A DNA stretch of 64,000 nucleotides, from positions 122,015 to 186,014 of the forward strand of contig JAUCBJ010008976.1 of the NCBI GenBank assembly GCA_032718475.1, read 5' to 3'. The notes under the pieces were generated by a model. It was not told where the DNA came from and did not search any database. It saw nothing but the letters and a program-made list of their open reading frames with translations. Origin of the DNA: Nemertoderma westbladi (Eukaryota; Animalia; Xenacoelomorpha). Of the stretch, positions 7,501 to 63,874 are shown in pieces. Within the stretch, counting starts at the first letter, position 1; each line of letters starts with the position of its first letter. The position numbers were made by a program, and so were the translations under genes.

Positions 7501-7503
7501 CAG

Positions 7504-11116: not shown

Positions 11117-11128
11117 ATAACGGATATA
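11117..11128 (+). promoter_or_regulatory. Self-complementary primer-binding site of A
   Basis: ATAACGGATATA is the exact reverse complement of LTR 10354-10365 TATATCCGTTAT. Confidence 0.75.
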
Positions 11129-11465
11129 GCTTCTTTATTGCAGTAAGCAATAAAGTTGAAAGTACCGGTCAACCGGTAAACCTGAACCGGTACTGCGGTA
11201 CGTCTGTAGGCCCAACTGCCTGAACCGGTACTGCTGTAGGTCTGTAGGCCCAACTGCCTGAACCGGTACTGCTGTAGGCCCATAGGCTCAACTGTCCTAA
11301 CCGGTACTTCCAGTACAGGTATAGCAGTATTATTCGATTTTGATTATTATATACCAGTAGGCCTTAATAATTAATCAGGGAGGGCCCGCCCTGGTTTTTT
11401 ATTGAGATTTTACTTATTTCTGTCAGTTTTATTTATTTGTAGGCCAATATTGAACAGAAGGCGTG

Positions 11466-14634: not shown

Positions 14635-16282
14635 ATGACGGAGTTGATAGAAGATGGTCTTGGTATCAGGGAGCGATATACTCTACTTTCAAGCGTTTGT
14701 TGATAGCTTGATACGCGGTGATACTAGTCCAACTACTACGGAGGATGATGGTCGTTATATCGAACCTACGATTTCCTGGAAGTAACTTACGCGTGAATTG
14801 GACTATGGAAAATTCACCGCTCGCTATACGCATCGTAATGGTACGTATATGGACTTCTTGACTACTGGTCATCCTATTGATTTACACGACACCGACGATA
14901 TAGACACCGAAAGGGAAATGGTTTTATTTAAATATCATACCCAGCGGAGTCGAAACGATAAATCGAGAATAGAACACGAGAACTCTATTCGAAACAGACT
15001 CGAGAGGGAAGACGTTGAAGAACCTGATAAACGTCGCGACTTCAACGACTATCTAGAATTCCTAAGAGAGACCTATCTCAATATTGCCAGTCAACAAAAC
15101 CTCGAAACTCGATATCCTCAAGGTATACATCCAGACCCTATGATGGAACTCAAACGGCTCTATTTTACGATGCTGTATCTTACCGCCGATCGACCGCTAC
15201 CTGTCGTTCCAGATAGCTTCGAACAGATGGAGGAATATTGTAAAACTGGAGAGCGATCACCCGCGTTTCCCCTTCAAGACGTGCGTCTTTGGTATTATTA
15301 CGATAAATGCCCTAGACCCAGCCAATAAACGGAAAGACATAAACATCCACGGAAACGTTGTGTTAAACACAGTTGTGCTCGTTATATTTACTGGAGTTTC
15401 GAGCGAAACTTGTTTGACGTATCACCTATGCTCACTCGGCTCGAACGATCCTGGAGTAAACCTACGATCAGAGTCCCGGAATACTCGGTCAAACCTCCTC
15501 ATTCCTTAGTTGGACCTCAGACCTGCGATCCTGGTGGTGTCGCGGATCCTCGCGGACTGTATTCACTGTTCAAAGATCTAGTGCTACCCTAACAATTAAT
15601 CGGTAACACTCCGACAGTGATTTCTAGCTAGCCGCCCATCTTACCTAGCCGGATTGTGACGCGGACACCTAATATCACTATCCAACCGTATGGTCGTCCC
15701 CGTTTAACGTGATACAACCCTTCATCAAGGTGAAGGAGAGCGTTGTACGAAACGAGTTAAACGCTATTCTATAAAGATCAAAAAAGAAACCTGCGTTTGT
15801 TCAGATAAACGTAAGTTATAACAGTAAGTCCAATCGATAAACGAATTGGCCTTATCTCAGTTCGATTGGGAAATCTCGAATCTCTAAGAAGATATCAAGC
15901 TTAGAAAACCCTATTCTCTGCGAGAGTTTTGGACGAACGTATCCCATGACAAGCGGAGGAAAATCAGCTCGAGGAGAAGCATATCGAAATGGACGAGACA
16001 CCAACCGTAAACCCAAACCTTCTAATGCAATTGTATTGCACCCTTTACCCAGGAGTTATAGTCTTTCTAGTAAAGTGGCTCGCCCCAAAGAGAAAAGGAC
16101 TCTTGCTGGCCTCGGGAAACTGCGTGAACGCCGTCCGCGCAAGAAAAACTAACTGTTTAGAGTATCTTTATGTTTTAGAAACTGTGATTTTTATATTTTA
16201 TAGACTGAAAATCCCATTTTCTGGGAGCGGTGTAAAAGCTTTTGCGGAATTGCCCGGTTATTTTTCCTTATTTTTCCCGTAA
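14635..16282 (+). pseudogene. Third ORF (ORF3, unknown function) of element A, frameshifted
   Basis: Homologous ORF pieces at the same position in elements B and C. Confidence 0.8.
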
Positions 16283-17125
16283 AATACTCTGTAGTTGGTT
16301 TAGTAGGCGTAAGAGGCCGTATTATTGCTGTATCGGTGTTTTTTAGAGGACCTAAGAGCTATTTCTTCCGTATGTGTACTTTGGGGGACATGGTTGGTGA
16401 TTCTATGGCAATTCTATGACGCAAAATAGCTAGATCCTCTTGAAACAGTAGTTACTATGACGACGGTTAACAGCTGAGCTGTATACGTGTCGATTTTCTT
16501 TGTTCTACGGTGCCTCTCAGTTCAGTCAACCAATCAGAGCGTTTTTACTGTTCTTGTACAGAAATTTCCTAGAAATCACGCAATGCTTTATGGGCAGTGT
16601 TATCATTCAGTCCTGAGCCAAGAAAGAACGGCTTTTGGAATATTTGTGCTTTTCTGCTTTTAGCCTCTGTGTCGGTCTGTGTTCCTTTTATATGTGACAT
16701 CAGTGTGCAGTATTGTGCAGCATTGTGTATGAGTGAGACTGATAACGAAGCATTTCCTAAAGAATGCGCCATATATGTGAATTGTAACTAAGCCATATCG
16801 TTGCATGTAGTTTAAGTCATAGCTCTGTTTATATAGATAGAGCGCCACGTCCAAAAGGAACTGTTAATATTCCCGAAGGTGAATAATATTGTCAGAGATT
16901 ATAATATAATACTGTCAGTCGAATAATACATTAGGCTTACATAGCAATAAGATTAAGCCGTCGAAGTCAATCTCCCGGGTATATCCAGCGGGTGAATGAT
17001 CGCGCACAGATTGGTTTCAACTAGTGTAGTGAATCAAATACTTGTCAGAGGCTAAAAGCGATTTATTATCTAGAAGACATCCTAATTTGGCGGGTTAAAC
17101 TGCCAAAGGTCTGAAAGCGCGAACA
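16231..17125 (+). repeat. 3' LTR of element A (lacks ~315 bp and ~23 bp relative to the 5' LTR)
   Basis: Direct repeat of 9890-11116; deletion junctions near 16666 and 16698. Confidence 0.95.
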
Positions 17126-17130
17126 CATTA

Positions 17131-18566
17131 TGACTGAGGAGGAGCTTGATATTAAGATCGAAGCTGGTTTCGAAAATGTCGATTTCAATGAAGTCGACAT
17201 TGGACTTCTTGAAAGTGAACTTATTATGTCCAACATTCCCGAATGTGATGCTGCTGACCCTTTACTGGATGATGATGGCAATCTTGATTTTGAAAACTTA
17301 GAGCCGCCAGGTAGTAACAATGAACAGACAGTACTGCAGGATGTGGTGATGATTGATGATATGGTTGGTGCCAGTACTAGTGGAGGAGCAACGGATGCAG
17401 ACTCCCTTCCTGGTTGGGATCGTGTCCTTGCTTTGGCGGAACATCTGGCAGATCTAAATAGTTTGATAGTGAGCATAACTGATGCAACAGCTATTGTGAA
17501 GAAGTTCAATCAACTTCATGAGTATGATAAGAAACCTATCGAATTCCAAAGGAGTGTTTCTTCTACTCGACCTTCACGTCCTTCGAGTTTCAGATTAAAG
17601 AAAGCCATGAGTGGACAAGATGGAGCAGAAACTTTGCGAACTTGTATAGTTTCTGGAGGTCCACCAGCTTTGAGCCCTGCACTAAGTAGAGTGGTTCAGG
17701 CAATATTCATCAGGTTGGGAGAAGTATATATTGAAAATAAACGCATTGTATCTTCAGGGAAGAGGATATCTGTATCCCGCTGGAAGTTGATGTGTCAACA
17801 TTATCTAAGACTGCGGAATCGGATTTCCCATTGCTCTGCAATAACAGATCATTGTAATTTGACACTCTACAATGTCAACGAAACAACCCTCAGGCAGTGG
17901 TGGGAAAAAAAAATCCGACGGGAAGAGGCTAAAACTCTTATAGGAAATTTGGGGTTGCAGAGTTCTGCCCCAAATGTTGCAGAGGAACCACTCCCTGAAC
18001 CACAGCCTCTCAGGAAAAACATCGAGCAACCCATCACACCAATGTCTATCTATGATCCTGTGGATACCCGAGGCCACGCCACTGTCAGGAGTAGGAAAGA
18101 AACCGTTGATTCATCGAAGACTTCAGCCCCTTCAGTTTCACAACCCCCTCCACAAATGCCTTTTCAACCATATTTACCCTTCTACCCACCTTACATAAAC
18201 TGCAATCCAAATCCATACTACCCATATCCATACCCGATACCTTCCCACCCGAAGTATATCCAGCCGAGCTATGACCGACCATCCCAGGATCAGTGGGATA
18301 GCAAACAGCCTCAATCAGACATGAGTTTAGGTCCTGTCCAGGTGCAACATCGACCTATAAGCCGTACAACCGCTTGGCGAAGACGTAAAGTATCAACAAC
18401 AGAGCCTTTCACTCGTAAGATTCACAAACCTCGCAGATGTCATAAATGCCAATCACTATTAGGAGGGGATGTTTATCATCGTCATTATTTTGGGCATATA
18501 TACTGCCCATATGAAGTGGGGCAGGTATCATATGATGAGTGGTTGGATTCCATCAATCGCAAGTAA
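17131..18566 (+). pseudogene. Mutator-like transposase, 3' part (acidic region, PGWDRV motif, C-terminal CxxC..H..C finger)
   Basis: Removing element A and one TSD copy restores ...HEEI-MTEEELD... in frame. Confidence 0.8.
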
Positions 18567-21310: not shown

Positions 21311-22177
21311 TGTAAAAGCTTTTGCGGAATTAGCTAGTCATTTTTCCCGTAAAGTATTCTGTAGGTGTTTTAACGGACATAAAAAGCCGTTTCCTTACTG
21401 TACCGGTGTTTTAGTGGACATAAAAAGCCATTTTTCTGTATGTGTGTACTTTAGCGGACATAACTAGCAATTTTATGTCGCAATGCATCAAAATACTCTT
21501 GATACAGTGTAGTTCAGATTACGACATCTACCAGCTGATTTGCTGTACTCGTGGAGCTTTCTTTGTTCGGCTCAGCCAATCAGAGCGATTTTCATTTTAT
21601 TAGCACAGAAGCCTCCGGGAAATCGCGCAATGCATTATGGTTTATGTTTACCTTTTCCTGATGCCAGAACATCGGCTGTGGAATAATTCTGTGTTTCAAC
21701 TTTTAGCAAAACATTAGTAGGCTTAGATTATAGAAAAGTATAGCTGTTATCTCACATACATACTCAACTCAGCATATCTCAGTGCAGTCTCGCATGGGAC
21801 AGTACCAGTACACACCGCATTATTTTACTGCTATTTACTGTTGGTTATTAATTGTATCAGTTGATGGAATATTGTTATATTTGGATAATCTCGATAAATA
21901 ATCAGAAAACCCCCCATCTTCTTGATATACTGAAGGTAAGAGACTGGTTACATATAGCAATTGCGACTCACATTATCGTGGTTTTGGAGTGACTCTAATG
22001 CTAATTTATAGGCACTACATGGGTCAATTGCTGTTCTCTTTATATGTGATTAAAATTAGTGAAGGTCGGCAGATCGGTGTGCAGCATTGTGCGGTAGTGT
22101 GCATGATTGTGAATGATAACAAAGCATTTCCTAAAGAATGCGCCTTATACGTAAATCAATAGCCTTCCCATTGTGTC

Positions 22178-23397
22178 TGTTCGCGCTTTTAAGACCTTTA
22201 GCAGTTTAACCTGCCAAATTTATATGTATTTTAGATTATAAATTGATATAAATATTATTAGTATCTATAGTATTTGATACAAATAAACACTACATTAGCC
22301 GAAGCCAGCCTAGTGCGCGACCATTCACCCGTTGGATATACCCGGGAGACTGGGTTCGGAAGACTTGACCTTATTGCGTTGTAAGCCTACTGTATTATTC
22401 GATTGATCGTTAATATATAATCTCTGACAAATATTATTCACTTTCGGTAAATATTAACAGTTCCTTTAGGAAGTGGCGCTCTAATTACGGGTATGTAAAC
22501 AGAGTTATGACTTATACTAAACACAACGGTATGGCTTATGATTCATGTATAAGGCGCATTCTTTAGGAGATGCTTAGTTACCTGTCAAACCATGCACTCT
22601 ATCGCACAATACTGCATACCAATCTGCCGACCTTTACTAATTTTAGTCACATATAAAGAGAACAGCAATTGACCCATGTAGTGCCTATGAAATAGCATTA
22701 GATTCACTCCAAAACCAAAATAATATGAGTCGCAATTGCTATATGTAACCTGTCTCTTACCTTCAGTATATCAAGAAGATGGGGTTTTTATGATTCTTTC
22801 TCGATATTATCCAAATATAATAATATTCCATCAACAACTGATACAATTAATAACCGACAGTAAATAGCAGTAAAATAATGCGGTGAAAGGCCATAATGCA
22901 TTGAGTGCATGGTGGTACCGTAATACTTGGCTTGTTATGGTAACAGTTATACGTTCCGGTAATCAAGCCGTTCTAATGTTTGGCTAAAGTCTGAAACACA
23001 GAATTATTCCACAGCCGATGTTTGTGGCGTCAGGAAAAAGGTAAACATAAACCGTAATGCATTGCGCGATTTCCCGGAGGCCTCTGTGTAATAAACTGAA
23101 AATCACGCTGATTGGTCGAGTGATTGCACAGAGTGGGCCTGAACAAAGAAAGTTCCAGGAGTACACCAAATCAGCTGATAGATGTCGTAATCTGAACTAC
23201 ACTGTGTAGAGAGTATTATGGCGTATTGCGACATAGGATTGCTAGTTATGTCCGCCAAAGTACACATACAGAAAAATAGCTTTTTATGTCCACTAAAATA
23301 CCGGTACAGTAAGGAAACGACTTTTATGTCCTTTAAAACATCTAAAGAGTACTTCGCGGGGAAAAAATGACTAGCCAATCCCGCAAAAGCCTTTACA
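22178..23397 (-). repeat. 3' LTR of element B
   Basis: Near-identical to 51796-52999; PPT complement CCGCTCCC at 23398. Confidence 0.95.
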
Positions 23398-34020: not shown

Positions 34021-35201
34021 GTTTACTTGTACAGTTGAATGCCTACTGCTATGATTACAGTTAAAGCAAGTCTAGTAACTCAGTATTACCGTTAGCCTAG
34101 TAATTAATTACCGATATCGTTACTCAGTGTAGCGTGATATATATAGAATATATTAGAATACCGGTATACACTTATAGTATATATATAAGTATTATTACAA
34201 ACTAGGTTTGTCACAGAATACCGGTATGTAATTTCAGCACAAATATATATAAATATATAATAGGCCTATCGTGAATACCGGTATACAGCTTACACTTATA
34301 GTATATATAAGTATAATTATGGACTAGAATTAATTACAGAATACCGGTACCGGGTATATAAGTTCAGCCTAAATTTATTGAAATAAATATAATAAGCCGA
34401 TTGTAAGTACCGGGTATGTCAATTATTTCAGAATAATTGAATTCCTGAATTTTAGGGGTTACTTGGTTACTTTACGTTACCTTTTTACCGTTATTTAAGC
34501 AGTAGTCCAACTGATATTGAGACCTAATTGTTGTATGGCAGGCCTACTATTTATAAATTGTTTGAGTTGATTTATAATATATATATACCCGTTTAATGGG
34601 TTTTGTCAATATTTGAAATAAATGTTATTATTTCTGGGGGAAGTCACTACACAGAAGCTGTGCGCTCTCAGTGAAGTGCTACTTGTTGGACACTAAAACA
34701 AATAATTCTAATTTACCTAAGTTACTTAATACTACAAATTACGTACAATTCGGTGTGAGATTACAATCTCTAAATAAACACAAAAATTACAAGTACGAAT
34801 TTTTAGGGTAATTTTACAAGAAGTCTACAAACCAGCCTAACAAAGGGTTAGAATATCTGGTTATTACAACGGACAGGGTACTACGGTATTTGAAAATAAC
34901 TAAGCGGTAGTAAATATATACTGCATTGTCCAGATAGGAAAATACCACCGTCTGACGACTTATAGCCGTATCGCTATAAGTACTATGTTATGTATCACGG
35001 AGTGTTCCTACCTAGAAGTTAATTACCGCGGTCTACCAGAACCAACGTGCCTATTAACCACTTTACAACACAAATATACTGCCTACACACTAATTACCTT
35101 CGGAAAGCACTGTACACTAAACCCTAGATTAGGTACAAGTACTTGTATAACAAATAATCAGCAATTAAAAATACTTGTACAGCTAAAAGAACCACGGTAT
35201 C

Positions 35202-36389
35202 TGTAAAAGCTTTTGTGGGATATAACTGGCCCTTTTGCTTCGCAATCCAGTTTCCCTCAATGCGCTCAAATACTCTAAAGAAAAACTCCCTAACTCAAAG
35301 GATGAAAGCTACCGGCTGATTGGCTGATTTGCCTAGCGACGGCCTCTTTGTTCGGTTCGATCAACCAACCAGAGCAAGGTCAACCAAGCAGAGTGATTCA
35401 TCCTGTGTGTTAGCTACGGGCTGCAAAGGCTAGGGAGGTTTGGCATTTCGACATTCGTGGAACCTATGGAATCTGGAACTCTGCCAATGAGAGCTTTCCC
35501 TTTTGTGTTGAAAGCTACCTGCAACAGCTCACAGGGTTCAGTGTGTTGGTTTTTCCTGAGCCTAGAAACATCGGCTGTGGAATATTTCTGAATTATTCCA
35601 ACATTAGAACGTCTTTAATTATAAGATCACATAACTGTTACCGTGAGAACAGCACAGCACAGCACTGGACAGCGGAGGTACGGTACGGTACCTACTGCTG
35701 TATTGCACATTATTTACTGCTATTTACTGTTTGTTATTAATTGTATCAGTTGTTTACATATTGTTATTTGGAGAATAACGATAAACGATCAGAAACCCCG
35801 ATCTTCTTGATACACTAAGGTTAGAGAGAACGGTTACATATAGCAATTGCGGCTTATATTATCGTGGTTTGTAGTGAATTGAATGCTATTTTATAGGCCC
35901 TACAAATGTCGGTTGCTATTCTCTTTATATATGATTAAAATCAGTGACTATCGGCAGTGCAGTGTGCAGCGGTGTGCAATAGTCTGTATGTGCTTGTCCG
36001 CGTAACAAAGCATCTCCTAAAGAATGCGCCTTATGTGTAACTTATAATCCATTCCGTTGTGTTTAGTGTAAGCCATAGCTCTGTTTACATAGATAGAGCG
36101 CCACGTCCTAAAGGAACTGCTAATATTTCCCGAAAGTGAATGATATTTGTCAGGAATTATATTAACGATCAATCGAATATTACGGTAGGCCTGCACCGCA
36201 ATCAAATTAAAGCATCCAAATCCAGTCTCCCGGGTATATCCAGCGGGTGAATGGTCGCGCATAGACTGGCTTCGGCTAATGTTGGATTTATTTGTGTCAA
36301 ATACTTGTCATAGGCTAAAGTCGATTTATAACCTAGAAGACATATAGATTTGGCGGGTTAAACTGCCAAAGGTCTCAAAAGCGCGAACA
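35202..36389 (+). repeat. 5' LTR of element C
   Basis: TGTAAAAGC...GCGCGAACA. Confidence 0.97.
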
Positions 36390-36400
36390 GTAACAGTTAT
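36390..36400 (+). promoter_or_regulatory. Self-complementary primer-binding site of C
   Basis: GTAACAGTTAT is the reverse complement of LTR 35631-35641 ATAACTGTTAC. Confidence 0.75.
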
Positions 36401-36664
36401 CGTCTGATTGCAGTAGGCAATAAAGCTGAAGTACCGGACAACCGGTACCTAGTAGGCCTGACTACCTAACCACCCGGACCGGTACCTACAGCAGTACAGG
36501 TACAGCAGTATTGTTCGATTTGATAGTTATATACCGGTAGGCCTTAATATTAAATCAGGGAGGGCCCGCCCTGGTTTTTTATTGAGATTTTACTTATTTC
36601 TGTCAGTTTTATTTACTAGTAGGCTAATATTGAGCAGAAGGCGTGTAACCCTGCTCAGATCGTA

Positions 36665-37250
36665 CAGATAATTTGTAGGCTCGACTGTTGTCTGACCGTT
36701 GTTAAGGTCTGAATGGATTGCAGTGCATGTAGAGTGTATGTCCGATAAAGTGACGGTTAGGAAGTAGGGGCAGCCAGAGCTGTAAGGTAAATCCCCACCT
36801 AAAGAATAAGTCGTACTACTAGGTTAGAACGCATACTAACTAACCATTTCGGAGTCTGCATGTCCTGTAGTTTATTTAGGCTTGATAGTAGTCTGCCAGC
36901 GTTTGGTCTGTACTTTGTTTGTGTAGTCTGTACAGGTACCGTAATATTTCTTATTCAGATAATTTATAGGCTAGATTGTTGTCAGGCTGTTGTTAGGTCT
37001 GAAGAGATTGTAGTGTGTGTAGAGTGTCTGTCCGATAAAGTACTAGTTGGGAACGTTGGGGCAGCCAGAGCTGTAAGGTAAACCCCCTCTGAAAGAATAA
37101 GTCGTACTACTCGGTTAGAACGCATACTAACTAACCATTTCGGAATCTGCACATACTGTAATTTATTTAGGCTTGATAGTAGTCTGCCAGCGTTTGGTTT
37201 GTATTTTGTTTGAGTAGTTTGTACGGGTAGCGTAATATTTATTATTCAGA
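36665..37250 (+). repeat. ~291-bp tandem duplication in the 5' leader
   Basis: Units start at 36665 and 36956; also duplicated in D (53765/54067), single in B. Confidence 0.9.
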
Positions 37251-38586
37251 GTTTATGCGATTATTCGCAACATTCATATCCCCAAGTTTATTCCTACAGT
37301 AATTGTGCTTGTTATATATACCGTTATAGTTAAATTAACCCCGGTACTACATCAGGGCTGCTCGGCGTAGGTAAAGACTGGTGATTTTGTGCACCGGTCA
37401 CTCCAGCAGATGCCGTGGTTCTTTTAGCTGTACAAGTGTTTCTAACTACTGATTATTTGTTGTACAAGTACTTGTACCTAATTTAGGGTTTAGTGTACAG
37501 TGCTTTCCGAAGGTAATTAGTGTGTAGGCAGTATATTTGTGTTGTAAAGTGGTTAATAGGCACGTTGGTTCTGGTAGACCGCGGTAATTAACTTCTAGGT
37601 AGGGACACTCCGGGATACATAACGTAGTACCTATAGCGATACGGCTATAGGTCGTCAGACGGTGGTATTTTCCTATCTGGACAACGCAGTGTATTTACTA
37701 CTACTTATTATTTTCAAATACCGTACTATCCTGTCCGTTTGTAATAACCAGATTTCTAGCCCTTTGTTAGGCTGGTTTGTAGACTTCTTCAAAATTCTTC
37801 AAAATTCTAAAAATTCGTATTTGTGTTTTTTTTAATTTTTGTGTTTATTTAGAGATTGTAATCTCACCCCGAATTGTACGTAATTTGTAGTATTAAGTAA
37901 CTTAGGTAAATTAGAATTATTTGTTTTAGTGTCCAACAAGTAGCACTTCACTGAGAGCGTACAGCTTCTGTGTAGTGACTCTTTCTCAGAAATAATAACA
38001 TTTATTTCAAATATTGACAAAAACCCATTAAACGGGTATATATATTATAAATCAACTCTAAACGATTTATAAATAGTAGGCCTGCCATATAACAATTAGG
38101 TCTCAATATTAGTTGGACTACTGCTCAAATAACGGTAATAAAGTAAGTAAAGTAACCAAGTAACCCCTAAAATTCAGAAATTCAATTATTTAAAATAATT
38201 GATATACCGGTATTCACGATAGGCCTATTATCTTTATTTCTATAAATTTAGGCTGAAATTATACCGGTATTCTGTAATTAATTCTAGTCCAGAATTATAC
38301 TTATATATACTATAAGTGTAGGCTGTATACCGGTATTCACGATAGGCCTATTATATATATATATATATTTGTGCTAAAATTATATACCGGTATTCTGTGA
38401 CAAACCTAGTCTGTAATAAAATTTATATATACTATAAGCATACCGGTATTCTAATATATTATATATATATCACGCTACACTGAGTAGCAGTATCGGTAAT
38501 TAATTACTAGGCTAACAGTTAATACTGAATTACTAGACTTGCTTAGACTGTAATATAGCAGTAGGCATTCAACTGTGCAAACAAAC

Positions 38587-41500
38587 ATGTCTGATACTAA
38601 GCAGAACCTGTCAGACAGTTTATTAGATTAACTATTTGCGACTCAGATAGGGGTGTTGAACCGTCTAGATCTAAGTTCCGTTCACCTCCTACTGTGAGGA
38701 AGGTCATCCCTCCTGTAGTAATATCAGACCCTAGGCTAATCCAACACTGTAGGTCTATCATCGGTACTCGGGCCCAAGTTAAGCGGCATCAAGAAGCAGC
38801 TGTCAAACAGCAGCAACCTCCTAGCCTATAACCTAGTTCTCAGCGGCCCGAGAGCTCCAGTAGTTCGGATACTGCTGAGCTAACGCCCGAACGCGGAGCG
38901 AAGATAGCGGATACGGTTTATTCGGATCCCCTTCTCATCCTTCCTGCAGCCGTACTCACCAGGGTATTGATTGCGGTGGAGGAACACCAGATTGATTGGA
39001 CGAGAAGTAAGCGAGCGACCAAGGATAGTTATGCGGGATATACACGGGAAGAACTGAAGTCTATTGTCGAGTCGCAATGGAGCTTCCCCGGACCCGGACT
39101 ACCGTTTGACTTATCGGAAGCTGCTTGGGAAGACATACACAGGATGGGAGTAACAAAGGAAACCATCGATCCAGCTGTATGGAAGAGGTCAGCAGCCGGA
39201 TACGTACAGGGATTCTTCAGCTCTATGGAGCGATTAGAGGAACAACTGTTTAGACAACCACAAGGACCTCAAGAGCAGGGAGAGCTGCTTTATCAAGTTA
39301 GAGAAAGAATTCTAAGAATCAGACTAATCTTATCTGCCTTTGAGGAGGCTTCGAAAAGAAAGCAAGACACATCGTTGCAAGTTGCCGTAAAGACTTGGTT
39401 ACAGTGGGTGAGTCTCCAAGTTCAAAGAGCTGCCCCGTGGAAATCGCAGTTAGATGAGCGCTCAACACTTGGGGAATCCACAGATGCTACCTTTTCCCAA
39501 GTGGAAAGTGAAGCGACAGCAGAGAAACCGCATAAGAGGGATGCTATTGACATCTGTCAGACTATCAACGCTTTTTGGGTGATGAAGAGTTGAGGAGAAG
39601 GCTGGAAGGACTTAGCCCTAATAGTGAAGGAGCCAAACTTGTGTTGGACGCGATCGATGCGGATATGATAGCTGCGAACCAAGCTAAATTTGATGAACAA
39701 CTCCGCATCGCTAGAGTCCAAGAAGAACAAGTAAAGAAAAGGCGGATAGAAGCCAGAAAGGCAACAGCAGTAGCAGCGGCAATGGCAACGGCAGAAGCAG
39801 AAAGAAAAGCGGCGGTAGCAACGGCAGTTGCAATGGCAGAAGCAGAAAGAAAGGCTGCAGTTGCAGCGGCAGAGGCAGAAGCGGAAAGAAAAACAGCAGT
39901 AGCAGCGGCAATGGCAACGGCAGAAGCAGAAAGAAAAGCGGCTGTGGCAGAAGCAGAACGGAGAGCGTCGGAAGAGACCACCCAACTGGAGTTGGAAAAT
40001 CTGCAAGAGACGCAAGACAACATAAATAAACAGTTAACAGATAGTCGAATGCAGATGATGAGTCGATCTACTCCCAAACGCCAAGGATATACATCATCTG
40101 AGGAAGGCGATACTACCGATGCTGAAGGCGGAGGAAATAGATCTCGTCTAAGCAGACGTAGAAGAACATCTCACCGTCAGAAATTGCCTGATTTGCTCCC
40201 AGCTGTTAAAAGACAACTAACTAGCGTAGGCTTAGGTAGTACAGAACTCACAGACCAAATAATTAAAATAGAAAGACTCCCTACTATAGTAGATGAGCCT
40301 GAAATAATTAGGCCTGTTCTTGAAATCACCCCTTCGGTGATAGAGACACCTGTACTCCCAGAACCTACCTTTAAATTCCCTTTACACAGCACCAAATTAT
40401 CTGTGCCTAGAGGAACAGCCCCGGAAACAGTGTCGGTCCTGGACTCCGAGCGAAATATAAAAGATATATCGCCCGTAGTCCCTCGTCTGCCCGCTACAAC
40501 GTTGGCGGATCCCGCTTCGGCGGTTGATTGGGTAGACGAGAGACAGCGGGGGATGGACATTCTCCTCGGAGAGATGAAGGAAAATCGAGTGCGCTCCTCC
40601 CAACAGGTCCGAGAGTTAGAAGGGACTGTTCAACAGTTAAAGGGAACCGTAAAGGAAAGTAGGTTAGAGTTGCAAGAAGTGCAGCAAAGTATCGCGCTAG
40701 AATGCGATAAATTAGCAAATTTACAAAAGGGTATACCACCACCCCCTGTAACAATATGTCAACCCGTTAGGTCTGAAGTATCTCATGCGCAAGGTGTGGA
40801 GCCTACACGCATCTATACTGCTAGCGAAGTAGAAACTCCTATAGTAAACCCTATTAAGGGTAATTATAAACCTGTTGACAATGATATCCCATATAGACTT
40901 GATAATAATCCGAGAAATTTATATACCGATAACTCGATATTAAATAACACGATGGCCCAAGAAAGTTTTACGCGTCAAATGGCTAGAACCGAAGCCCGTC
41001 AAGCGGTAAAGGTGGGAGAGATCGTCAAGTTCAATGGAGATGAGATGAAATGGTTACCTTTTAATGAATATTATAAAGATAACATACAGAACTCTGTGCT
41101 ATCTAACGGAGAGAAACTCAGATACCTCATCGAATGCTTGGAAGGAACTCCTAAGTTAATGGCGTTAAAACTTGTTGGACATCCAGATGGATTAAGACAA
41201 GTTTGGGATACTCTAAACTTCAGGTATGGTAATAGGAATAACATAGCTGGGTATTTGTATGCAAAGTTGGTAGCGCCCCGAAAGTTTATTAGCAGCGGGA
41301 TTATCGAGTTTTCCGATGAGATTCAGGAGATCTGCCGACAATTAGATTGGCTAGGTAAGTCTCATGAGTATCAGAGTGCTATGGTTATTAGAGCAGTGAC
41401 TTCTACTTTACCGAAAGGTGGAGTAGGTACACGCTGGGACAAGAAAGTGTTATATATGATGGAACAACAACAACGAGACCCTACCATGGCTGATCTCATG

Positions 41501-44500
41501 TCATTCTTGGATGGCGAGGTGAAATTACAGCTCATAAAGCAGTCCAGAGAGAAGACATCGGAAAGTAAGGTAAGTGAGAAACCCGTTTCTAGGAGAAAGG
41601 TAACACCAGTATGTTATACCGACGACGGCGAAAGCCAGAATTCTCAAGGAGAGGATAGCGGGAAAGATACTGAAAGATCTTATTATGTTATTATGTTTAT
41701 GTTTATTATGTTATTCAAAACAAGGTAAGTAACATCAAACTGAAATGTGTGCTATGTGACGGGACTCACCGTTTGAATATGTGCGATGAATTCCTAAAGA
41801 AATCATTAACGGAGAGACGGGAAGTCATGTGGGATAAGCGGTTGTGTTATAATTGCCTCAGACAAGGACACCAACGGCGAACCTGTTACTCTGACACAAG
41901 GTGTGCAAAGTGCGGTGCGAAGCATCATATCTTGTTGCACACTGAATTCGAGCGAAACAGCCAGGGTCAGGTGAGTGATTCCGAATTACATGTCCAATTC
42001 AGTGATGTGAACGACACTGACCAAAGTTCTGAGATGGAAGGATTCTATACGGACGAGTTCTCCGACGAAAACGAATCCTGTTACATGATAAATACCGCAG
42101 TGTATCGAGCACTCATGTATGAAAAAGACACAGACAGCGACCTCACCCTAACTACTTCTGATCAACAACCATCTTGGAAAGCGCCAACTTCCAATGTAGG
42201 GATCCGAGAATTTCCTGTAGTCCAGTTATGGGTCCACGGACCTCAAAGGAGTTATATAGTAAACGCCCTCCTTGACTCCGGTAGCACAGGAACATTCATC
42301 GACAAAGAACTAGCCGAGGACATCTTTGCTGGACAACCCAAATACCGAACTAAGCTAAACATGTCAGGAATAATGCAGGTTTGGAAATCTACAGTAATAG
42401 CGGATTATTACGTAGGTGCGTTGTCTACCCCCCAGGATGAACTAGGAGAACACAGTATAAGGTCAGTAAAAATGGTGGCGATAAAGAACTTCGCTACCAG
42501 CCAAGTGGAACCTTATAACTGGGATGAGGACGATTTCACCCAGCACCTTAAAATACCTAGATTCAACACCGATTACCCTGGAGTGCAAATACTCATCGGT
42601 CAAAACGCGCATGAAGCGCTCGAGACATTGGAGAAACGGCCCGCTCAACCGCAACCATTACAAGCTTATGCGGGAAGAACTAGAGTGGGTTGGTACTTTA
42701 CTGGCCCTTCCCGTAGAACTCTCATGGAAAGATTACCGAAAGATCAGGTATATCAAGTACGAGAATGGGAAGTTGAGAACAGTGAGTTAGACGATCCAAC
42801 TGAGGGAACTCCATACTCCTCAGACAACGACGATATACACCGACTCTTCGATGAGGAGAATACAATAGATCTCCTTACGGAAAACGAGACTTGGCAAAAC
42901 CAAGTAAACCTATGTCAGCTCATTCGTCCATCGGAATGAGACGACTATAACGACGAACTGAATGACGTCATTGAACGTTATAATGCCAAAACTCGGGATG
43001 AACACGCCGTACGATTCTTTACTCAAGAGGCTGTAGAGCCCAATTCGTACGACAAGGCCCTATCGGTAGAAGAAGAAAGAGCCAAGCAGATCCAAGAGAC
43101 AACTACCCGTTTTCTGAAAGATCAAGGTAGATATGAAATCGGTCTACCTTTCCGAAAGCGAGAACCAAAGTTCATCAACAACAGACCCTTGGCGGAGAAA
43201 AGAATTGCTCAACTACATCGACGCCTTACGGCAAATTCTTCAGCTAAAGAAATGTATCAAACGCAGTTGAAGAAATTTATTAGCAAGGGATATGCGGAGC
43301 TAGTATCGGAAGAAACACCTATAACTGAGAGAACGTATTATTTAACTCACCATTACGTTCCCAAACCCGGTAAACCTCACGAAGTACGAGTAGTGTTTGA
43401 CGGCTCCGCCCTCTACATGGGCCAATCCCTTAATTCCGAATTGTTACTCCAATCCTTGTTGGGAATACTTTTAAGATTAAGACAATATTCAGTTGCTTTC
43501 GCCTCAGATATAGAAGGCATGTTCTTACAAGTCAAGGCACTGGATAGGGATCGAGATAGCCTACGATTTCTGTGGTGGCCTGAAGGAGACCTCAACCAGA
43601 AACCGGTGGAGTACTGGATGACCATCCAGGCTTTTGGAATAATCTCAAGCCCTTCAAACGCCTGTTCAGTGGTGCGCACCACTGTGGATGACAATCGGGA
43701 AGCCTTCTCTAAAGAGGTGATCGACAATATCAAACGAGACATATACATGGACGATAATCTAAAGTCCCTTCCATCAGTCAAAGAAGCCATTGATGTCGCT
43801 AAAGGAACGGTAGAGTGTTTAAAAAGAGGTGGATTTCGATTAACTAAATTCACCAGCAACTCCCGTGAGTTTCTGGAATCGATCCCGGTGGAAGATCGAG
43901 GAGCGAAAGACTTAGACCTAATCAAAGATGATCTTCCAGAGACTAAGACACTTGGTTTGAAATGGGACACAGAGAGGGATATCCTGTTTTTCCAGCTAAA
44001 ACAGCGAGATAATCCAGTTCGAACTAAATGGATTTGTTTAAGTATCCTGAGCACTTATTTCGATCCATTGGGATTTATTAGCCCAGTTATATTAATTGCT
44101 CGGAGTTTAGTACAACAAATGTGGCTAGAAAACCACTCATGGGACGATCCACTTAAGGGAGAATTATTAAAGAAGTGGATGAAATGGGAAGATTCTTTAC
44201 CAGCCATCGAGAACTTTATAATTTCCCGTTCATATTTTGGTCATGTTCTCCCTACGTATTCCTATCAACTCCATGTGTTTGGAGACGCCAGCGATATGGG
44301 AATAGGTATAGAAGCCTACCTAAGACTGGAAACTCCAGATGGAATCAAGGTTGCCTTGGTTACCTCTAAGGCGTTGATAAACAACAAGTTGAAGGTTCCT
44401 CGAGCGGAGTTAAAGGCGGCTCTATACGCTACAGCCATCGGTCGGAATGTAACGGAACAGATCGATTATCCATTGGAGAAAACTGTCTATTGGACCGACG

Positions 44501-46629
44501 CTTTACTCGTGTTGGAGTATATAACCAATGAAGTCTGTCAGTTCAGCGTCTTCGTTACCAACAGAGTAGCCATTATACTTAGTCGCACGACGATGGACCA
44601 ATGGAGACATTGCCCCGGAACGATCAATCCAGCCAACATCGCCTCCAGGGGAGCAACTCCACAAGAACTGGTAGATACTCCAGACTGGTTAGGTGGACCC
44701 GACTTCCTGTACAAAGAAGAAGAAGAATGGCCTCCTCATCTTACTACAGCAGAGATTAGACAGGCCAAGGGAGCGGAGAAAGTTAAACCTAAAACTCGGG
44801 CGAGTAAATCGAAGTTATTTAAACCTATGGTAGACCTGTCCGTACTACATACTTCCGGAGACGACGCTTTGGATCAGAAACCCACAGCCGCAAACAAGCA
44901 GGTTATGGAAATCCGTGAGAAGGATTGGAAATCTGGAATACCAGACGTTTCGCAAGGACTCTCACCTCTCCTGCAGAGAGCGATACATCACTACAGTTCC
45001 TGGAATCGGCTCTGTAAAGCCGTAACATATTTAAAACGATGTTTTCATCATCACTACTCCGGGAAGAAGACCAATAGTGATACAGCTCCACTGACATCAG
45101 TGCAGGTCCATGTTGCTAAAGATCTTCCCAAATATAAGATATCAGACAGGTTTCTGAAGGAGAAGATCAGCTATCAGGAGCATGAAGAAACCAACAAACA
45201 GATGCTGAGACTCCTGCAATGCTATGAGGATTCCGATAAGTATTTCCTGTTGTTGAGAAATCCACAGATGCGCTTAAGGGATCGTTTCTCTAGCACAATG
45301 ATAGATGGGTTGATACGTGTTGGAGGAAGATTAACGAATGCTCCATTATCCTTTGACACTAAGTTTCCCATACTCATTAGAAATCTTGAAATACAAGTCA
45401 AGATGATTGTAGATGTTCACAGCAAACTTTATCATGCTGGTAGAGAACGAGTTCTTAGCGAAATTCGAACTCGCTATTATTTCTACAAACCCCGTAGAGC
45501 TCTGAACCAAGTTCTTAGGAACTGCATACCCTGTAGGAAAGCGTTCAGTAGGCCTTTAACACAGCGAGAGGCAGAATTACCTAGGGAAAGAGTAAGCTTC
45601 TATGAACCACCCTTTACTAACACCAGTGTAGATTTATTTGGCCCTATTGAAGTGTATCGTGCTAGAACTATAGTCAAGAGATGGTGTGTCATCTTTGTTT
45701 GTATGACTTGTAGAGCTATCCATCTCGATATTGTGAACGATTTGTCTACCAACAGCTTCCTATTAAGCTTACGACGACAGATCGCTCGCTTTGGAACTAG
45801 TAACACAATGAGATCTGATAAGGGAACGAACTTCATTGGTGCCAACAATGAAATCAAAGCTTACGTCAAAGATTGGAACCAAAGACAGGTGGATGATCAG
45901 CTAAGAGTAACAGCGTCTAGCTGGACCTTCAACGCCGCCGACGCCCCTTGGTGGGGAGGAAGTTGGGAGAGATTGATTAGAAGTGTGAAGACCGCATTTC
46001 ACTTTATAGTGCCTTGCCGCGCGTATCTCACCGACGAACTTTTGCGGACGTTAATGGAGGAAATCGCCGCCTATCTCAACAAGAGACCGCTTATGCCAGT
46101 CTCATCGAGCCCCGATTCCCTGGAAGCGCTAACACCCGCGCATTTCCTACTGAAGAAACCTGTAGCCATGCTCCCACAATCGGAAATCACAGACGGAGAC
46201 GAATACTGCCGGCAAACTTGGCAACTTATGCAGTTGTTATCCCGTCGTTTCGCTGACCATTTCGAGAAACATTATCTGCCCACGCTACAACTTCGAACTA
46301 AGTGGTTTGCGCAGCAAGAAAACGTCAGCGCTGGAGACATGGCCCTTATTGTAGATTCAGATCTTCCACGTAAGCGGTGGCAAACAGGTCTTATCATCGA
46401 GACTCACATCTCGGATGACGGTTTGGTGCGATCGGTAGAACTCGTCGTCATGCGACGTAACTTCAAGAAACCGGGAATTGTCTTTGAGACACAGCAGCTC
46501 AATCGCCCAGTTGGTCGTTTGTGTTTACTGGAAAGAGACAGAGAACTCTCCAGAAACTATGGAAGACAAGATACTCTTCCCACGACCACCTCCCTAATAC
46601 AACAAACATCTAGGGACTCCCCAGCTTAG
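38587..46629 (+). pseudogene. gag-pol: gag-pol polyprotein of element C (frameshifts/stops near 38630, 38828, 39555, 41690, 42937)
   Basis: Gag knuckles CYNCLRQGH, protease LLDSGS, RT SDIEGMF/YMDD, RNase H FGDAS, integrase HAGRE/DLFGP/RSDKGTNF/WERLIRSVK, BEL-type C-terminal tail. Confidence 0.95.
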
Positions 46630-48263
46630 TAACATCTGGAGTGGGTGTGTGACCATATTATTTTATATTCTTATTATTTTATACTTATGTATGCATTATT
46701 ATGTAATTTTATTCTAATCGTTTTATTTAATTTTATTTAGTAGAATGTTATTTAGCGATTATTTAGTAGATTAGTGCAATATATATTCGCGTTTATTACT
46801 TAATTACTTATATATTATATATTTAATGCGACGGCGAGAAATAATTCTTTTTTCTCTTTCCTTACTATGCGTATTATATTATAAATACGTGACTACAGTA
46901 AGATGAAATGTCTGTACTTATCAAAGTACAATAAAGCCACTACTATATTTAAGTATTATTGGTAAGCAGAGTATTAGGAATGCAAAGTTCAGATCCTCGT
47001 GTCTCGGCTAAACCAAGCTCTGGGTAGACCTTGGAAACGACTTGCCTCCTCACACTGACATTGCTTCGTGCGATATTGCTCTCATACCGTATATTAAATA
47101 ATACATATAGTAGCGTGATGTCCCTTTAACAGTAGCGTAAAACGCAAAATAAATCTGTTAAACCCTTTGACCATCTGCAATTCTATTCGATTAAGATATC
47201 GCGGCACCCACCGATATACTTGAAAGACAAAATTCTAGAATCAGTGGTTAACGTCCCCAGACTTGTTCTGGAATAAACCGGTGCCCATCCTAAATATTAA
47301 TTATTAATATTTATAAAATCTGTCAAATTTCAGATCCTTTAAAATTCTAGTCGATTAAGATATCGTAGCACTTACCGATACTCTTAAAAGGACAAATCCC
47401 TAGAATCAAGGATCCCAGTCCCCAGACTTGTTCTGGAATAAAATTGTGTCTATTTAACATTAAATAATAAAATTTACGGGAATAAATTTAAATTCATATT
47501 TTAATGAATTCAATAAATTGTTATTTTTATACAATTTATAATATTCCCAAAATTCCATTAATTAATAGATCATGGGAGCAGAGATTCACCTATTAAGTGT
47601 ATTAGTGTGCGAGAATCTCCAATATAGAGTCAATAGCCGATAAAATTCATAAAATCATATATAAAGATGATATTGACCATTAAAGTCTTACTATTAAATA
47701 GCATCCCAGATCTGTATGCATGGGAATTACCCTAATTCTACCGCTAGCTTTCCATAATGTCACCATAGCAACAACCACGCTAGAATTAGAAGCGAGTTAA
47801 CAGAACAATAAAAAGCTTGCTCATTGAATAGCATACGGAATAAATAGCACACTGTTAGTATCCAAGGATACATAATAATAACGTGACATTCTGGAAGGCA
47901 CTTGACTAACGGACAAATGACCCGAATGTGTGACAGAATGTGTACCATTTGTGACAGTTACGTGGAATTTGTGCGTTTGTAGGTGAATGTTACTACTAAG
48001 GTGTGTTTACAGTAGCGAGTCGCAATTGTGAAAGTAGCCCTAACTCTCCAGTAAGAACCTGAAGTATATCTAAGCCTTTGGGATGGACGGTGGAGTGACT
48101 CATGCTGGTTGTTGTAGTCGTTGTGCAGCTACGACGTTGACGTCGGCGAAAGTACACCAGCGCTGAGGATCTCGCACTGTCCGGGGGCAGAGAGGGGTAG
48201 GCAGCGACGCCCGCTCGCCTAAATATAAACTCATTATAATATGGATAAACTTATATAGCAGAT

Positions 48264-49843
48264 ATGATTGAGTTGATAGAAGACGATCTTGGTATCAGGG
48301 AGCGATATACTCTACCTTTACAAGCGTTTGTTGATAGCTTGATACGCGGTGACGCTGGTCCAACTACTACGGAGGATGATGGTCGTTATATCTAACCGCC
48401 AATGTCCCGGGAGCAACTTGCGCGTGGGTTGAACTGTAGAAAATTCACCGCTCGCTGTGCGCGTCGTAAATGGTACGTATATGGACTTCTTAACTACTGG
48501 TCATCCTATCGACCTACACGATACGAACGATATAGACACCAAAAGGGAAATGGTTTTATTTATATATCATACCCAGCGGAGGCGGAACAATAAACCGAGA
48601 ATCGAACATGAGAATTCTATTAGAAATCGACTCGAAAGAGAAGACGTTGAGGGACCGGATAAACGCAGCGACTTCACCAAAATATCTGGAATTCTTGAGA
48701 GAAACATATCTCGATATTACCAGTCAACAGAATCTAGAAACTCGATATCCTCAAGGTATACATCATGACCGCATGGTAGAACTCAAACGGCTCTATTCCA
48801 CTATGATGTATCTTACCGCCGATCGACTGCTACCTGTTGTACCGGATAGCTTCGAACAGATGGAGGAATATTGTAAGCTGGAGAAAGATCACTCGCGTTT
48901 CCCCTACAAGACGTGCGTCTTTGGTATTATTGCGATGAATGTCCTAGACCCAACCAACAAACGGAATGACATAAACATCCACGGAGACGTTGCTTTAAAC
49001 ACGGTTTTACTCGCTATACTTGCGGGAGTTTCGAGCGAAATTTGTTTGATGTATCACCTACGCTCGTTCGACTCAGACGATCCTTACATAAACCGATGAT
49101 CAGAGTTCCGGAATACTCGATCAGACCTCCTCATTCCCTAGTGAGACCTCAGGCTCTTGATCCTATTAGTATGACGGATCCTCCCGAGCTGTACTCACTG
49201 TTCAAAGATCTGGTGTTGCCTGAACAATTAGTCGGTGGCACCCCGGTTGTGGGCTTCCTAGATATTAGCCCATCCTACCTAGCCGGATTGGGACGCGGAC
49301 ATTTAATATCGCCGTTTAACCCTTACCATCGTCCCGGCTTAACCCGATACAACCTGTCACTGAGGCGGAGGAGAGAGTTGTACGAGACGCGTTGGACACT
49401 ATTCGTCAAAAGATCTGAAAATGAACCTACAATGGTTTAGAGAAACGTAAATTGCAGTAGAAAAGTCCAAGTGATAAACGAATTAACTTTATCTCAGTTC
49501 GATCAGGGAATTCAGAATCTCTAAGAGGATATCGAACTTGGACGACCATATTCTCTGCGAGAGTTTTTGGGATGAACGTATCCAGCTACGAGCGGAGGAA
49601 AATCAGCTCGAGGAGAAGCATATCGAAACGGCGGATACCCCGACCATAATCCTACACCTTCTGATGCAATCATATTGCACCCTTCACCCAGGAGTTATGG
49701 CCCTCCTAGTAAAGTGGCTCCCCCCAAAGAGAAAAAGACTCTTGCTATCTTTAAAAAACTGCGTAAACGCCGTCCACGCAAGAAAGACTAACTGTTTAGA
49801 GTATTTTTATATTTTAGAAACTGTGATTTTTTATATTTTATAG
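48264..49843 (+). pseudogene. ORF3 of element C, frameshifted
   Basis: ORF pieces 48457-48768, 48608-49099, 49042-49440, 49538-49843 homologous to A and B. Confidence 0.8.
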
Positions 49844-49869
49844 AATTAAATCCCATTTTCTGGGAGCGG

Positions 49870-51056
49870 TGTAAAAGCTTTTGTGGGATATAACTGGCCC
49901 TTTTGCTTCGCAATCCAGTTTCCCTCAATGCGCTCAAATACTCTAAAGAAAAACTCCCTAACTCAAAGGATGAAAGCTACCGGCTGATTGGCTGATTTGC
50001 CTAGCGACGGTCTCTTTGTTCGGTTCGATCAACCAACCAGAGCAAGGTCAACCAAGCAGAGTGATTCATCCTGTGTGTTAGCTACGGGCTGCAAAGGCTA
50101 GGGAGGTTTGGCATTTCGACATCCGTGGAACCTATGGAATCTGGAACTCTGCCAATGAGAGCTTTCCCTTTTGTGTTGAAAGCTACCTGCAACAGCTCAC
50201 AGGGTTCAGTGTGTTGGTTTTTCCTGAGCCTAGAAACATCGGCTGTGGAATATTTCTGAATTATTCCAACATTAGAACGTCTTTAATTATAAGATCACAT
50301 AACTGTTACCGTGAGAACAGCACAGCACAGCACTGGACAGCGGAGGTACGGTACGGTACCTACTGCTGTATTGCACATTATTTACTCTATTTACTGTTTG
50401 TTATTAATTGTATCATTTGTTTACATATTGTTATTTGGAGAATAACGATAAACGATCAGAAACCCCGATCTTCTTGATACACTAAGGTTAGAGAGAACGG
50501 TTACATATAGCAATTGCGGCTTATATTATCGTGGTTTGTAGTGAATTGAATGCTATTTTATAGGCCCTACAAATGTCGGTTGCTATTCTCTTTATATATG
50601 ATTAAAATCAGTGACTATCGGCAGTGCAGTGTGCAGTGGTGTGCAATAGTCTGTATGTGCTTGTCCGTGTAACAAAGCATCTCCTAAAGAATGCGCCTTA
50701 TGTGTAACTTATAATCCATTCTGTTGTGTTTAGTGTAAGCCATAGCTCTGTTTACATAGATAGAGCGCCACGTCCTAAAGGAACTGCTAATATTTCCCGA
50801 AAGTGAATGATATTTGTCAGGAATTATATTAACGATCAATCGAATATTACGGTAGGCCTGCACCGCAATCAAATTAAAGCATCCAAATCCAGTCTCCCGG
50901 GTATATCCAGCGGGTGAATGGTCGCGCATAGACTGGCTTCGGCTAATGTTGGATTTATTTGTGTCAAATACTTGTCATAGGCTAAAGTCGATTTATAACC
51001 TAGAAGACATATAGATTTGGCGGGTTAAACTGCCAAAGGTCTCAAAAGCGCGAACA
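49870..51056 (+). repeat. 3' LTR of element C
   Basis: Preceded by GGGAGCGG; direct repeat of 35202-36389. Confidence 0.97.
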
Positions 51057-51783
51057 GTATCTGCCGGAGTGACCAAAGCACAAAATCTCCAGTCTTTACC
51101 TACGCCGAGCAGCCCTGATGTAGTACCGGGGTTAATTTAACTATAATGGTATGTATAACAAGCACAATCACTGTATGAATAAACTTGGGGATATGAATGT
51201 TGCGAATAATCGCATAAACTCTGAATAATAAATATTACGCTACCCGTACAGACTACTCAAACAAAATACAAACCAAACGCTGGCAGACTACTATCAAGCC
51301 TAAATAAACTACAGTATGTGCAGATTCCGAAATGGTTAGTTAGTATGCGTTCTAACCGAGTAGGACGACTTATTCTTTCGAGGGGGTTTACCTCACAGCA
51401 CTGGAAGCCCCTACATTCCTAACTAGTACTTTATCGGACAGATACTCTACACACACCGCAATGTCTTCAGACCTAACAACAGTCAGACAACAGTCGAGCC
51501 TACAAATTATCTGTACAATCTGAGCAGGCTTACACGTCTTCTGCTCAATATTAGCCTACAATTAAATAAAACTGACAGAAATAAATAAGCTCCAAAAGAA
51601 ACAAGGGGTGTACAGTCCCTAATCTCTTAAGCAGCCTACCACTATACAATATCACAATTGAAATAATACTGATGTACGGTACCTGTACTGTAAGTACCGG
51701 TTCCGGTGGTTAGGTAGTTAGGCCTACAGGTTACCGGTCGACCGGTACTTCTCTCTTTATTGCCTACGCCGCAATAAAGAAGC

Positions 51784-51795
51784 TATAACTGTTAC
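51784..51795 (-). promoter_or_regulatory. Self-complementary primer-binding site of B
   Basis: Minus-strand GTAACAGTTATA pairs with the LTR 12-mer at 52542-52553 (also 22940-22951). Confidence 0.75.
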
Positions 51796-52999
51796 TGTTT
51801 GCGCTTTTAAGACCTTTAGCAGTTTAACCTGCCAAATTTATATGTCTTTTAGATTATAAATCGACTTTAGCCTATGACAAGTATTTGATACAAATAAACA
51901 CTACATTAGCCGAAGCCAGCCTAGTGCGCGACCATTCACCCATTGGATATACCCGGGAGACTGGATTCGGAAGACTTGACCTTATTGCGTTGTAAGCCTA
52001 CTGTATTATTCGATTGATCGTTAATATATAATCTCTGACAAATATTATTCACTTTCGGGAAATATTAACAGTTCCTTTAGGACGTGGCGCTCTAATTATG
52101 TAAACAGAGTTATGACTTATACTAAACACAACGGTATGGCTTATGATTCACGTATAAGGCGCATTCTTTAGGAGATGCTTAGTTACCAGTCAAACCATGC
52201 ACTCTATCGCACAATACTGCATACCAATCTGCCGACCTTTACTAATTTTAGTCACATATAAAGAGAACAGCAATTGACCCATGTAGTGCCTATGAAATAG
52301 CATTAGATTCACTCCAAAACCAATATAATATGAGTCGCAATTGCTATATGTAACCTGTCTCTTACCTTCAGTATATCAAGAAGATGGGGTTTTTATGATT
52401 CTTTCTCGATATTATCCAAATATAATAATATTCCATCAACTGATACAATTAATAACCGACAGTAAATAGCAGTAAAATAATGCGGTGAAAGGCCATAATG
52501 CATTGAGTGCACGGTGGTACCGTAAGACTTGGCTTGTTATGGTAACAGTTATACGTTCCGGTAATCAAGCCGTTCTAATGTTTGGCTAAAGTCTGAAACA
52601 CAGAATTATTCCACAGCCAATGTTCATGGCGTCAGGAAAAAGGTAAACATAAACCGTAATGCATTGCGCGATTTCCCGGAGGCCTCTGTGTAATAAACTG
52701 AAAATCACGCTGATTGGTCGAGTGATTGCACAGAGTGGGCCTGAACAAAGAAAGTTCCACGAGTACACCAAATCAGCTGATAGATGTCGTAATCTGGACT
52801 ACACTGTGTAGAGAGTATTATGGCGTATTGCGACATAGGATTGCTAGTTATGTCCGCCAAAGTACACATACAGAAAAATAGCTTTTTATGTCCACTAAAA
52901 TACCGGTACAGTAAGGAAACGACTTTTATGTCCTTTAAAACATCTAAAGAGTACTTCGCGGGGAAAAAATGACTAGCCAATCCCGCAAAAGCCTTTACA
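51796..52999 (-). repeat. 5' LTR of element B
   Basis: Direct repeat of 22178-23397. Confidence 0.95.
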
Positions 53000-53486: not shown

Positions 53487-53497
53487 ATAACAGTTAT
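53487..53497 (+). promoter_or_regulatory. Self-complementary primer-binding site of D
   Basis: ATAACAGTTAT pairs with LTR 21740-21750 ATAGCTGTTAT (one G-U). Confidence 0.7.
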
Positions 53498-59376: not shown

Positions 59377-59662
59377 CGGTAGAATTAGGGTAATTCTCAT
59401 GCATACAGATCTGGGATGCTATTTAATAGTAATTCTTTAATTGTCAATATCCTCTTTATACATGATTTTATGAATTTTATCGGCTATTGACACTATATTG
59501 GAGATTCTCTCACACTAGTACACTTAATAGGGTGAATCTCCACTCCCATGATCTATTAATTAATGGAATTTTGGGAATGTTATAAATTGTATAAAATAAC
59601 TATTTATCAAATTCATTAAAAGAGATGAATTTAAATTTATTCCCGTAAATTTAATTATTTAA

Positions 59663-60790: not shown

Positions 60791-60794
60791 TTAA

Positions 60795-63857: not shown

Positions 63858-63874
63858 TACTTCTTTCTCCCAAC

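Follow-up and report, generated by a model that had tools for sequence, protein, structure and literature searches.

The LTR retrotransposons at this locus raise the question why LTRs of a single family, alike over much of their length, turn unrelated in a short block directly past a putative self-primer, and whether the edge of that block marks the place where strong-stop cDNA ends. The window, i.e., the whole 64-kb stretch of DNA that was analysed, contains four copies (A, B, C, and D) of one BEL/Pao LTR retrotransposon family, in which a Pfam scan finds the domains Peptidase_A17, DUF1759, DUF5641, and Integrase_H2C2 in gag-pol order. The copies and their parts are located as follows:

9890-17125: element A
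5′ LTR from 21311: element D, split by B
22177-52999, minus strand: element B, split by C
35202-51056, plus strand: element C
35202-36389, plus strand: 5′ LTR of C, TGT...ACA
49870-51056, plus strand: 3′ LTR of C, with a primer copy at 50299-50309 and a block at 50310-50382 identical to the 5′ copy
51796-52999, minus strand: 5′ LTR of B
22177-23397, minus strand: 3′ LTR of B
38832-46629, plus strand: gag-pol of C, four open frames with DUF1759, Pao peptidase A17, a YMDD RT motif, integrase H2C2, and DUF5641

The LTR ends read TGT...ACA, and the 5-bp target duplications are exact in B and C (in C, 35197-35201 and 51057-51061) and contain one mismatch in A. The 5′ and 3′ LTRs agree at 1181 of 1187 aligned bases in C and at 1179 of 1202 in B. 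Homologues of the window protein number 128, with fish, amphioxus, molluscs, echinoderms, and arthropods as named hosts; the protein is at most 44% identical to its closest relatives and occupies a long branch on a quick protein tree. An LTR pattern search of viral and metagenome contigs found nothing, a protein scan of viral contigs found no relative, the Pfam domains of the window elements include no chromodomain, and Rfam has no match within the 64-kb window.

Between 21311 and 59376 the family is nested at three levels, with B inserted into the LTR of D, and C into the 5′ leader of B; element A precedes the nest by about 4 kb, and a further family fragment is found at about 62350-63860. 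Such nesting may stem from a tendency to insert into related elements, or from a high density of repeats in the region. From pol to the 3′ LTR of C extends a 3.2-kb stretch (46630-49869) with broken reading frames and 84-90% identity across A, B, and C; this region is possibly an extra gene, and the three pieces of it that were scanned have no Pfam match. The remains of D enclose a 1.1-kb palindromic element (59659-60794) that is 90% self-complementary. Two further frames are present in the window: one of 628 codons (7450-9336), with DUF6729 and a tandem repeat of 93 nt, and one of 483 codons (17115-18566), without a Pfam match.

In all four elements, the sequence that directly follows the 5′ LTR can base-pair with a segment of that LTR located some 750 nt upstream:

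35631-35641, plus strand: predicted self-primer of C, 11 Watson-Crick pairs, exact reverse complement of the PBS (0 of 60 shuffled PBS)
36390-36400, plus strand: PBS of C, no TGG, directly past the LTR-terminal CA
10354-10365, plus strand: predicted self-primer of A, 12 pairs with the PBS at 11117-11128 (0 of 60 shuffles)
52542-52553, minus strand: predicted self-primer of B, 12 pairs with the PBS at 51785-51795 (0 of 60 shuffles)
21740-21750, plus strand: predicted self-primer of D, 10 Watson-Crick pairs and one G.U with the PBS at 53487-53497 (2 of 60 shuffles)
36381-36386, plus strand: LTR-end hexamer of C, which in the fold prediction pairs with 36255-36260 as one PBS-flanking duplex

Primer and PBS co-vary: the three differences between the primers of A and C are all compensated in the PBS of A, and D has one compensated change and one G.U. 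The PBS of the window elements lack TGG, the tRNA-site motif as used in the accessible text of PMC6317226. Predicted folds of A, B, and C contain the primer:PBS duplex, with most pair probabilities above 0.9 (range in C, 0.67-0.99); the central and one flanking duplex are predicted, and the sequence 3′ of the PBS forms a local hairpin. Hairpins are predicted in A, B, and C near the LTR end (36349-36370) and just 3′ of the PBS (about 36408-36428). The closest TATA-like motif lies a mere 11 nt or so upstream of the primer, which weighs against the explanation favoured below. The self-priming geometry put forward in the preliminary description is supported by primer:PBS complementarity and co-variation in the window elements.

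The blocks, measured from the primer edge to the shared TACTGCTATTTACTG motif, differ in length:

35642-35714, plus strand: block of C, 73 nt, predicted start of R, at the 5′ end of the template after cleavage
10366-10451, plus strand: block of A, 86 nt
21751-21825, plus strand: block of D, 75 nt
52475-52541, minus strand: block in the 5′ LTR of B, 67 nt, beginning at 52541 and going down
22873-22939, minus strand: block in the 3′ LTR of B, beginning at 22939 and going down, with two differences from the 5′ copy

The preliminary description had placed them directly past an 11-mer (11 or 12 nt in this analysis), correctly so, coordinates included, for A, D, C, and B. Its statement that the LTRs align on both sides holds for A, B, and D, whose mean pairwise identity is 0.69 in the bin before the primer end, 0.25 and 0.28 in the next two 40-column bins, and 0.87 thereafter; it is less true of U3, C having large private indels. 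The near-identity of the block within LTR pairs was likewise borne out, with 0 of 73 positions differing in C and 2 of 67 in B; agreement of this kind is to be expected wherever part of an LTR has been copied in a single round and does not set the block apart, and it can be judged from B and C only, since the 3′ LTR of A (16231-17125) has lost about 314 nt, primer copy and block included, and only one LTR of D falls within the window. The micro-duplications are present as claimed: CAGCA and GGTAC three times each in C, ACTCAATG twice in A, and ACTCA twice in A and D. Between blocks, local alignment finds a common 9-mer in two of the six pairs, a borderline result (22 and 46 of 2000 shuffles reach the score), and the remaining four window pairs align at chance level. 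The shared 9-mers lie at differing distances from the distal edge, and the four window blocks are not a nested series. In A, a 9-nt repeat whose start lies 2 nt within the primer end has its second copy 11 nt farther along; in D, a 7-nt repeat begins 3 nt inside the primer end. The block of C contains internal tandem units, and its proximal part (35642-35681) is the least shared, its distal part (35683-35714) being common to more copies. A 13-nt match of this block at 61373-61385, considered as a possible donor, was set aside as likely chance (it falls within a degenerate tandem repeat, and in this one of four tests 4 of 200 shuffles did as well); a convincing block donor was found neither within the window nor in Rfam.

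For this organism, variation beyond the window was followed in contigs from four public runs (at most three samples), mapped at 80% likeness to C, the only copy profiled. Summed contig depth, which is not copy number, is 22934, 16581, 9942, and 250 in the bin 35630-35642 and 1310, 763, 396, and 5 in the bin 35643-35655, a fall across the primer edge of 17- to 50-fold in all four runs. Past the edge it recovers stepwise over five bins (768, 1937, 6169, 14519, and 109359 in run X1). Among the joints listed, all four depart from C at 35640-35642, with re-entry points at 35678, 35683, 35688, and 35708, and none starts mid-block; three of these four have just 29 nt on one side. The three shorter joint forms keep successively less of the distal GGTAC array of C, and none keeps the proximal half alone. 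In one block-spanning contig variant, 7 of the 11 listed differences lie within the first 18 block bases.

The relatives compared are 80 related loci from metagenomes, among them 14 families in which a repeat boundary fixes the LTR end. Three of these 14 have a contiguous primer, as has the window family; in eight, the primer is completed by removal of a GTAAGT...AG intron, one has a TGG tRNA-type site, and two are unassigned. The split primers, in the LTRs of L002, L005, L025, L044, L056, L063, L064, and L079, are interrupted by introns of 76-164 nt, all with GTAAGT donors, whose removal lifts PBS pairing to 11-15 bp, a level reached by 0 of 60 shuffles in each. In L079, one of two LTR copies (L079:1-214 and L079:6769-7265) is precisely without the intron and has a 14-nt primer ready-made, whereas the other keeps the intron; the intron-less LTR is likely spliced RNA copied back into an LTR. 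A complementarity scan without offset missed most relatives, and a loose scan with the LTR ends left free returned many matches by chance at 9-10 pairs; with the threshold raised to 11 and judged against a shuffled null, at least 11 pairs are found in 25 of the 80 loci versus 9 of 400 shuffled trials. On the quick protein tree, spliced and contiguous primers are not clustered (173 and 34 of 500 shuffles as low), and because of this, the quickness of the tree, and the long window branch, no order of primer-type events is drawn.

Twenty-nine self-primed LTRs, from 25 families plus the four of the window, were used to locate repeat starts. Left out were L053 and L061 (11-12 pairs, but with a repeat boundary or the relative L038 placing the LTR end elsewhere), L031 (a block of just 23 nt), and near-identical copies within families. 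In 7 of the 29, a left-maximal repeat of at least 6 nt has its start at block base +1, against 1.20 expected from offsets +1 to +60 of the same LTRs (p ~3e-5); upstream offsets give an expectation of 0.76 and a same-first-base control 0.85. The excess amounts to 7 of 25 without the window and to 6 of 20 (p 6e-5) and 5 of 20 (p 1e-3) in two kin-thinned sets, and is weaker at a 5-nt threshold (8 of 29, p 0.006). No 6-nt repeat begins exactly at +1 in the other 22 LTRs, C and B among them. The primer ends in AC in 24 and in AT in 5 of the 29, and 23 of the blocks begin with C, giving a conserved junction of A(C/T) on the primer side and (C/G) on the block side; primer ending served partly as a criterion when choosing among candidate primers. 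The expectation for an ordinary microsatellite or VNTR, that repeat starts are unrelated to the edge, fails on these counts; distal indels are seen as well.

Individual families illustrate the pattern. L066 contains a perfect 16-nt duplication beginning at +1; L007, L008, and L010 carry three nested versions of the block, each one 5-nt unit longer near the primer (within the first 7 nt); and in the L045/L054 comparison, one L045 LTR has 13 extra nucleotides at +1 to +3 that repeat its own first bases. L066 and L079 were also tried as a polarity pair and rejected, their blocks failing to align and giving no polarity information. Eleven non-redundant pairs of related LTRs (of 12), unrooted for gain versus loss, comprise five without an indel of at least 3 nt, three with one at the primer edge (within 7 nt), and three with distal indels only. 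Since 13 of the 15 non-redundant indels of at least 3 nt fall at +1 to +51, the whole block is indel-prone. Blocks are identical across samples in several families, so that block change is occasional.

A polarised duplication hot spot marks the predicted strong-stop end in these self-priming BEL/Pao elements; as far as sequence comparison can tell, it is general across the clade sampled and constitutes a noisy barcode. The polarised, growing barcode of the preliminary description stands as regards the sharp edge, the events at primer +1, and the primer-side units in two families, and does not stand in the three of six informative pairs with distal-only indels; unanchored indels farther in reshape the block too, which is why it is noisy. 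The idea that the block changes in each cycle is not supported, young copies having identical blocks, and neither is the proposed addition of non-templated or foreign bases, given the lack of a substitution peak at the edge (3/113) and of a convincing donor in the window.

The block is probably the 5′ end of a template produced by a Tf1-like cut, where strong-stop cDNA would end and jump, and occasional misaligned landings would duplicate or drop a few bases at the edge. The series of events would begin with the observed primer:PBS complementarity and co-variation. The RNA duplex would then form and RNase H would cut past the primer, as in Tf1 and as the conserved junction suggests. Minus-strand cDNA would end at block base +1; from the same analogy, we infer a strong-stop cDNA end at the block start. 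A cDNA that landed in the 3′ copy of R with a downstream shift of one unit would re-copy the first bases, a cause that would fit the observed repeats, so that a new unit would appear beside the primer and push older sequence distally; a shortened cDNA would on landing delete proximal bases, while selection would preserve the primer and events reaching into it would be lost. One round would pass the change to both LTRs, consistent with the identical blocks of C, and arrays once seeded would also gain and lose units internally, as is observed. Such misaligned transfers would be occasional rather than a feature of every cycle.

It is unlikely, though worth serious weight, that the block is instead an unconstrained spacer between a selected primer and the selected TACTGCTATTTACTG motif, in which ordinary slippage operates and the left edge reflects selection on the primer in place of a mutational hot spot. 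The unanchored indels in three of the six informative pairs would fit such drift, as would a U3 that is likewise indel-rich and the presence of internal tandem units in C, with no anchored repeat in either C or B. Selection on the primer would indeed bound deletions, yet it fails to predict repeat starts at +1 over those at +2 to +60 (7 versus 1.2), and neither the one-sided depth gradient nor the left anchoring of all four listed joints is predicted.

Exchange at the first strand transfer offers a different source of unrelated sequence: U3 and R/U5 halves of different subfamilies would be swapped, and one primer would meet many unrelated R starts. Breakpoints near U3-R are known for fission-yeast elements, where the accessible text of PMC10085805 ascribes them to minus-strand transfer; the U3 of C, in which four-way identity falls to 0.09 in one bin, is far more diverged than its R/U5, and one listed joint (35640 to 35708) replaces the whole block. 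Swapping can reshuffle blocks but cannot create their diversity, given that the LTRs of A, B, and D differ in the block yet match to either side of it, and it leaves self-duplications starting at +1 unexplained; as a general account it is improbable. That the block owes most of its sequence to additions at the cDNA end, either captured host RNA or non-templated bases, is highly improbable: Tf1 RT adds such bases to most cDNA 3′ ends (accessible part of PMC11042837), the units behind the first in the L010 family differ by one base each, and two listed joints contain 1 and 4 unplaced letters, but substitutions do not peak at the edge (3 per 113 aligned bases in the first 10 nt versus 7-13 per ~110 in the bins from +10 to +89), the added sequence mostly copies adjacent bases, and the longest block match outside LTRs within the window is 10-13 nt.

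Misaligned transfer at a cleaved template end, if it is the cause, gives the block a wider meaning. It would provide a primer-edge footprint, readable from DNA alone, for the strong-stop cDNA end, would independently support self-priming outside Ty3/gypsy and Copia, and would let first-strand-transfer errors be seen to build tens of LTR bases over time. Should the layering hold genome-wide, the block would allow copies within young element families to be ordered, as a marker both fast and directional. Misaligned transfer also makes a sharp prediction for Tf1, the biochemistry of which is known. A bolder generalisation, for which the case falls somewhat short of even, is that a large, mostly aquatic BEL/Pao branch self-primes with its own, often splice-assembled RNA, that RT stutters at the cleaved end, and that rare transfer errors accumulate in both LTRs of each lineage as a record layered in one direction only. 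Such a natural recorder of lineage would mark the cleavage site to the base and order retrotransposition events that the flanking LTR cannot resolve.

Self-priming is recorded for Tf1/sushi, Tcn1, and TAR/Houba elements in the accessible parts of PMC6317226 and PMC4600332; general background is found in those of PMC3601003 and PMC12789967. A term search of the accessible portions of three BEL/Pao surveys (PMC554778, PMC3118150, PMC6238403) found no mention of PBS, tRNA, or priming, and a full-text literature search, with most subscription papers beyond its reach, found neither BEL/Pao self-priming nor an expanding primer-adjacent block. In domain set, TG...CA LTRs, and 5-bp target duplications, the window elements resemble BEL/Pao (Belpaoviridae); unlike those with a tRNA-type PBS, they have no such site. 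With Tf1, Tf2, Tj1, and Tf1/sushi elements they share an 11-nt LTR segment complementary to a PBS beside the LTR end and the absence of a tRNA site (accessible text of PMC7175516, PMC4600332, and PMC10085805). According to the available text of PMC7175516, the PBS of Tf1 pairs with the 11 bases at the start of the RNA, which RNase H cleaves between bases 11 and 12, and a cut past the primer is predicted to set the end of strong-stop cDNA in the window elements as in Tf1/sushi as far as that literature was accessible. Whereas Tf1/sushi elements have a Ty3/gypsy chromovirus pol, the window elements have BEL/Pao domains and no chromodomain; their primer lies about 750 nt from the LTR end, and of the two flanking 'pretzel' duplexes only one appears in the predicted fold. 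The accessible Tf1/sushi literature describes a recombination breakpoint near U3-R and no expanding block. A predicted primer with LTR-PBS complementarity of at least 10 bp is also shared with self-priming Copia elements (TAR, Houba/Osr-1) and Tcn1 plant lineages; these belong to other superfamilies, and the available part of PMC6317226 describes no adjacent hypervariable block for them. At the U3-R junction of HIV-1, for which misaligned minus-strand transfer plus cap copying has been proposed, errors are likewise fixed at the end of strong-stop DNA (accessible text of PMC12172438). The HIV-1 end is the capped start of the RNA, whereas the end predicted here is an RNase H cut; and while the HIV-1 changes amount to a few bases, tens of bases turn over in the window family and its relatives, and short tandem arrays build.
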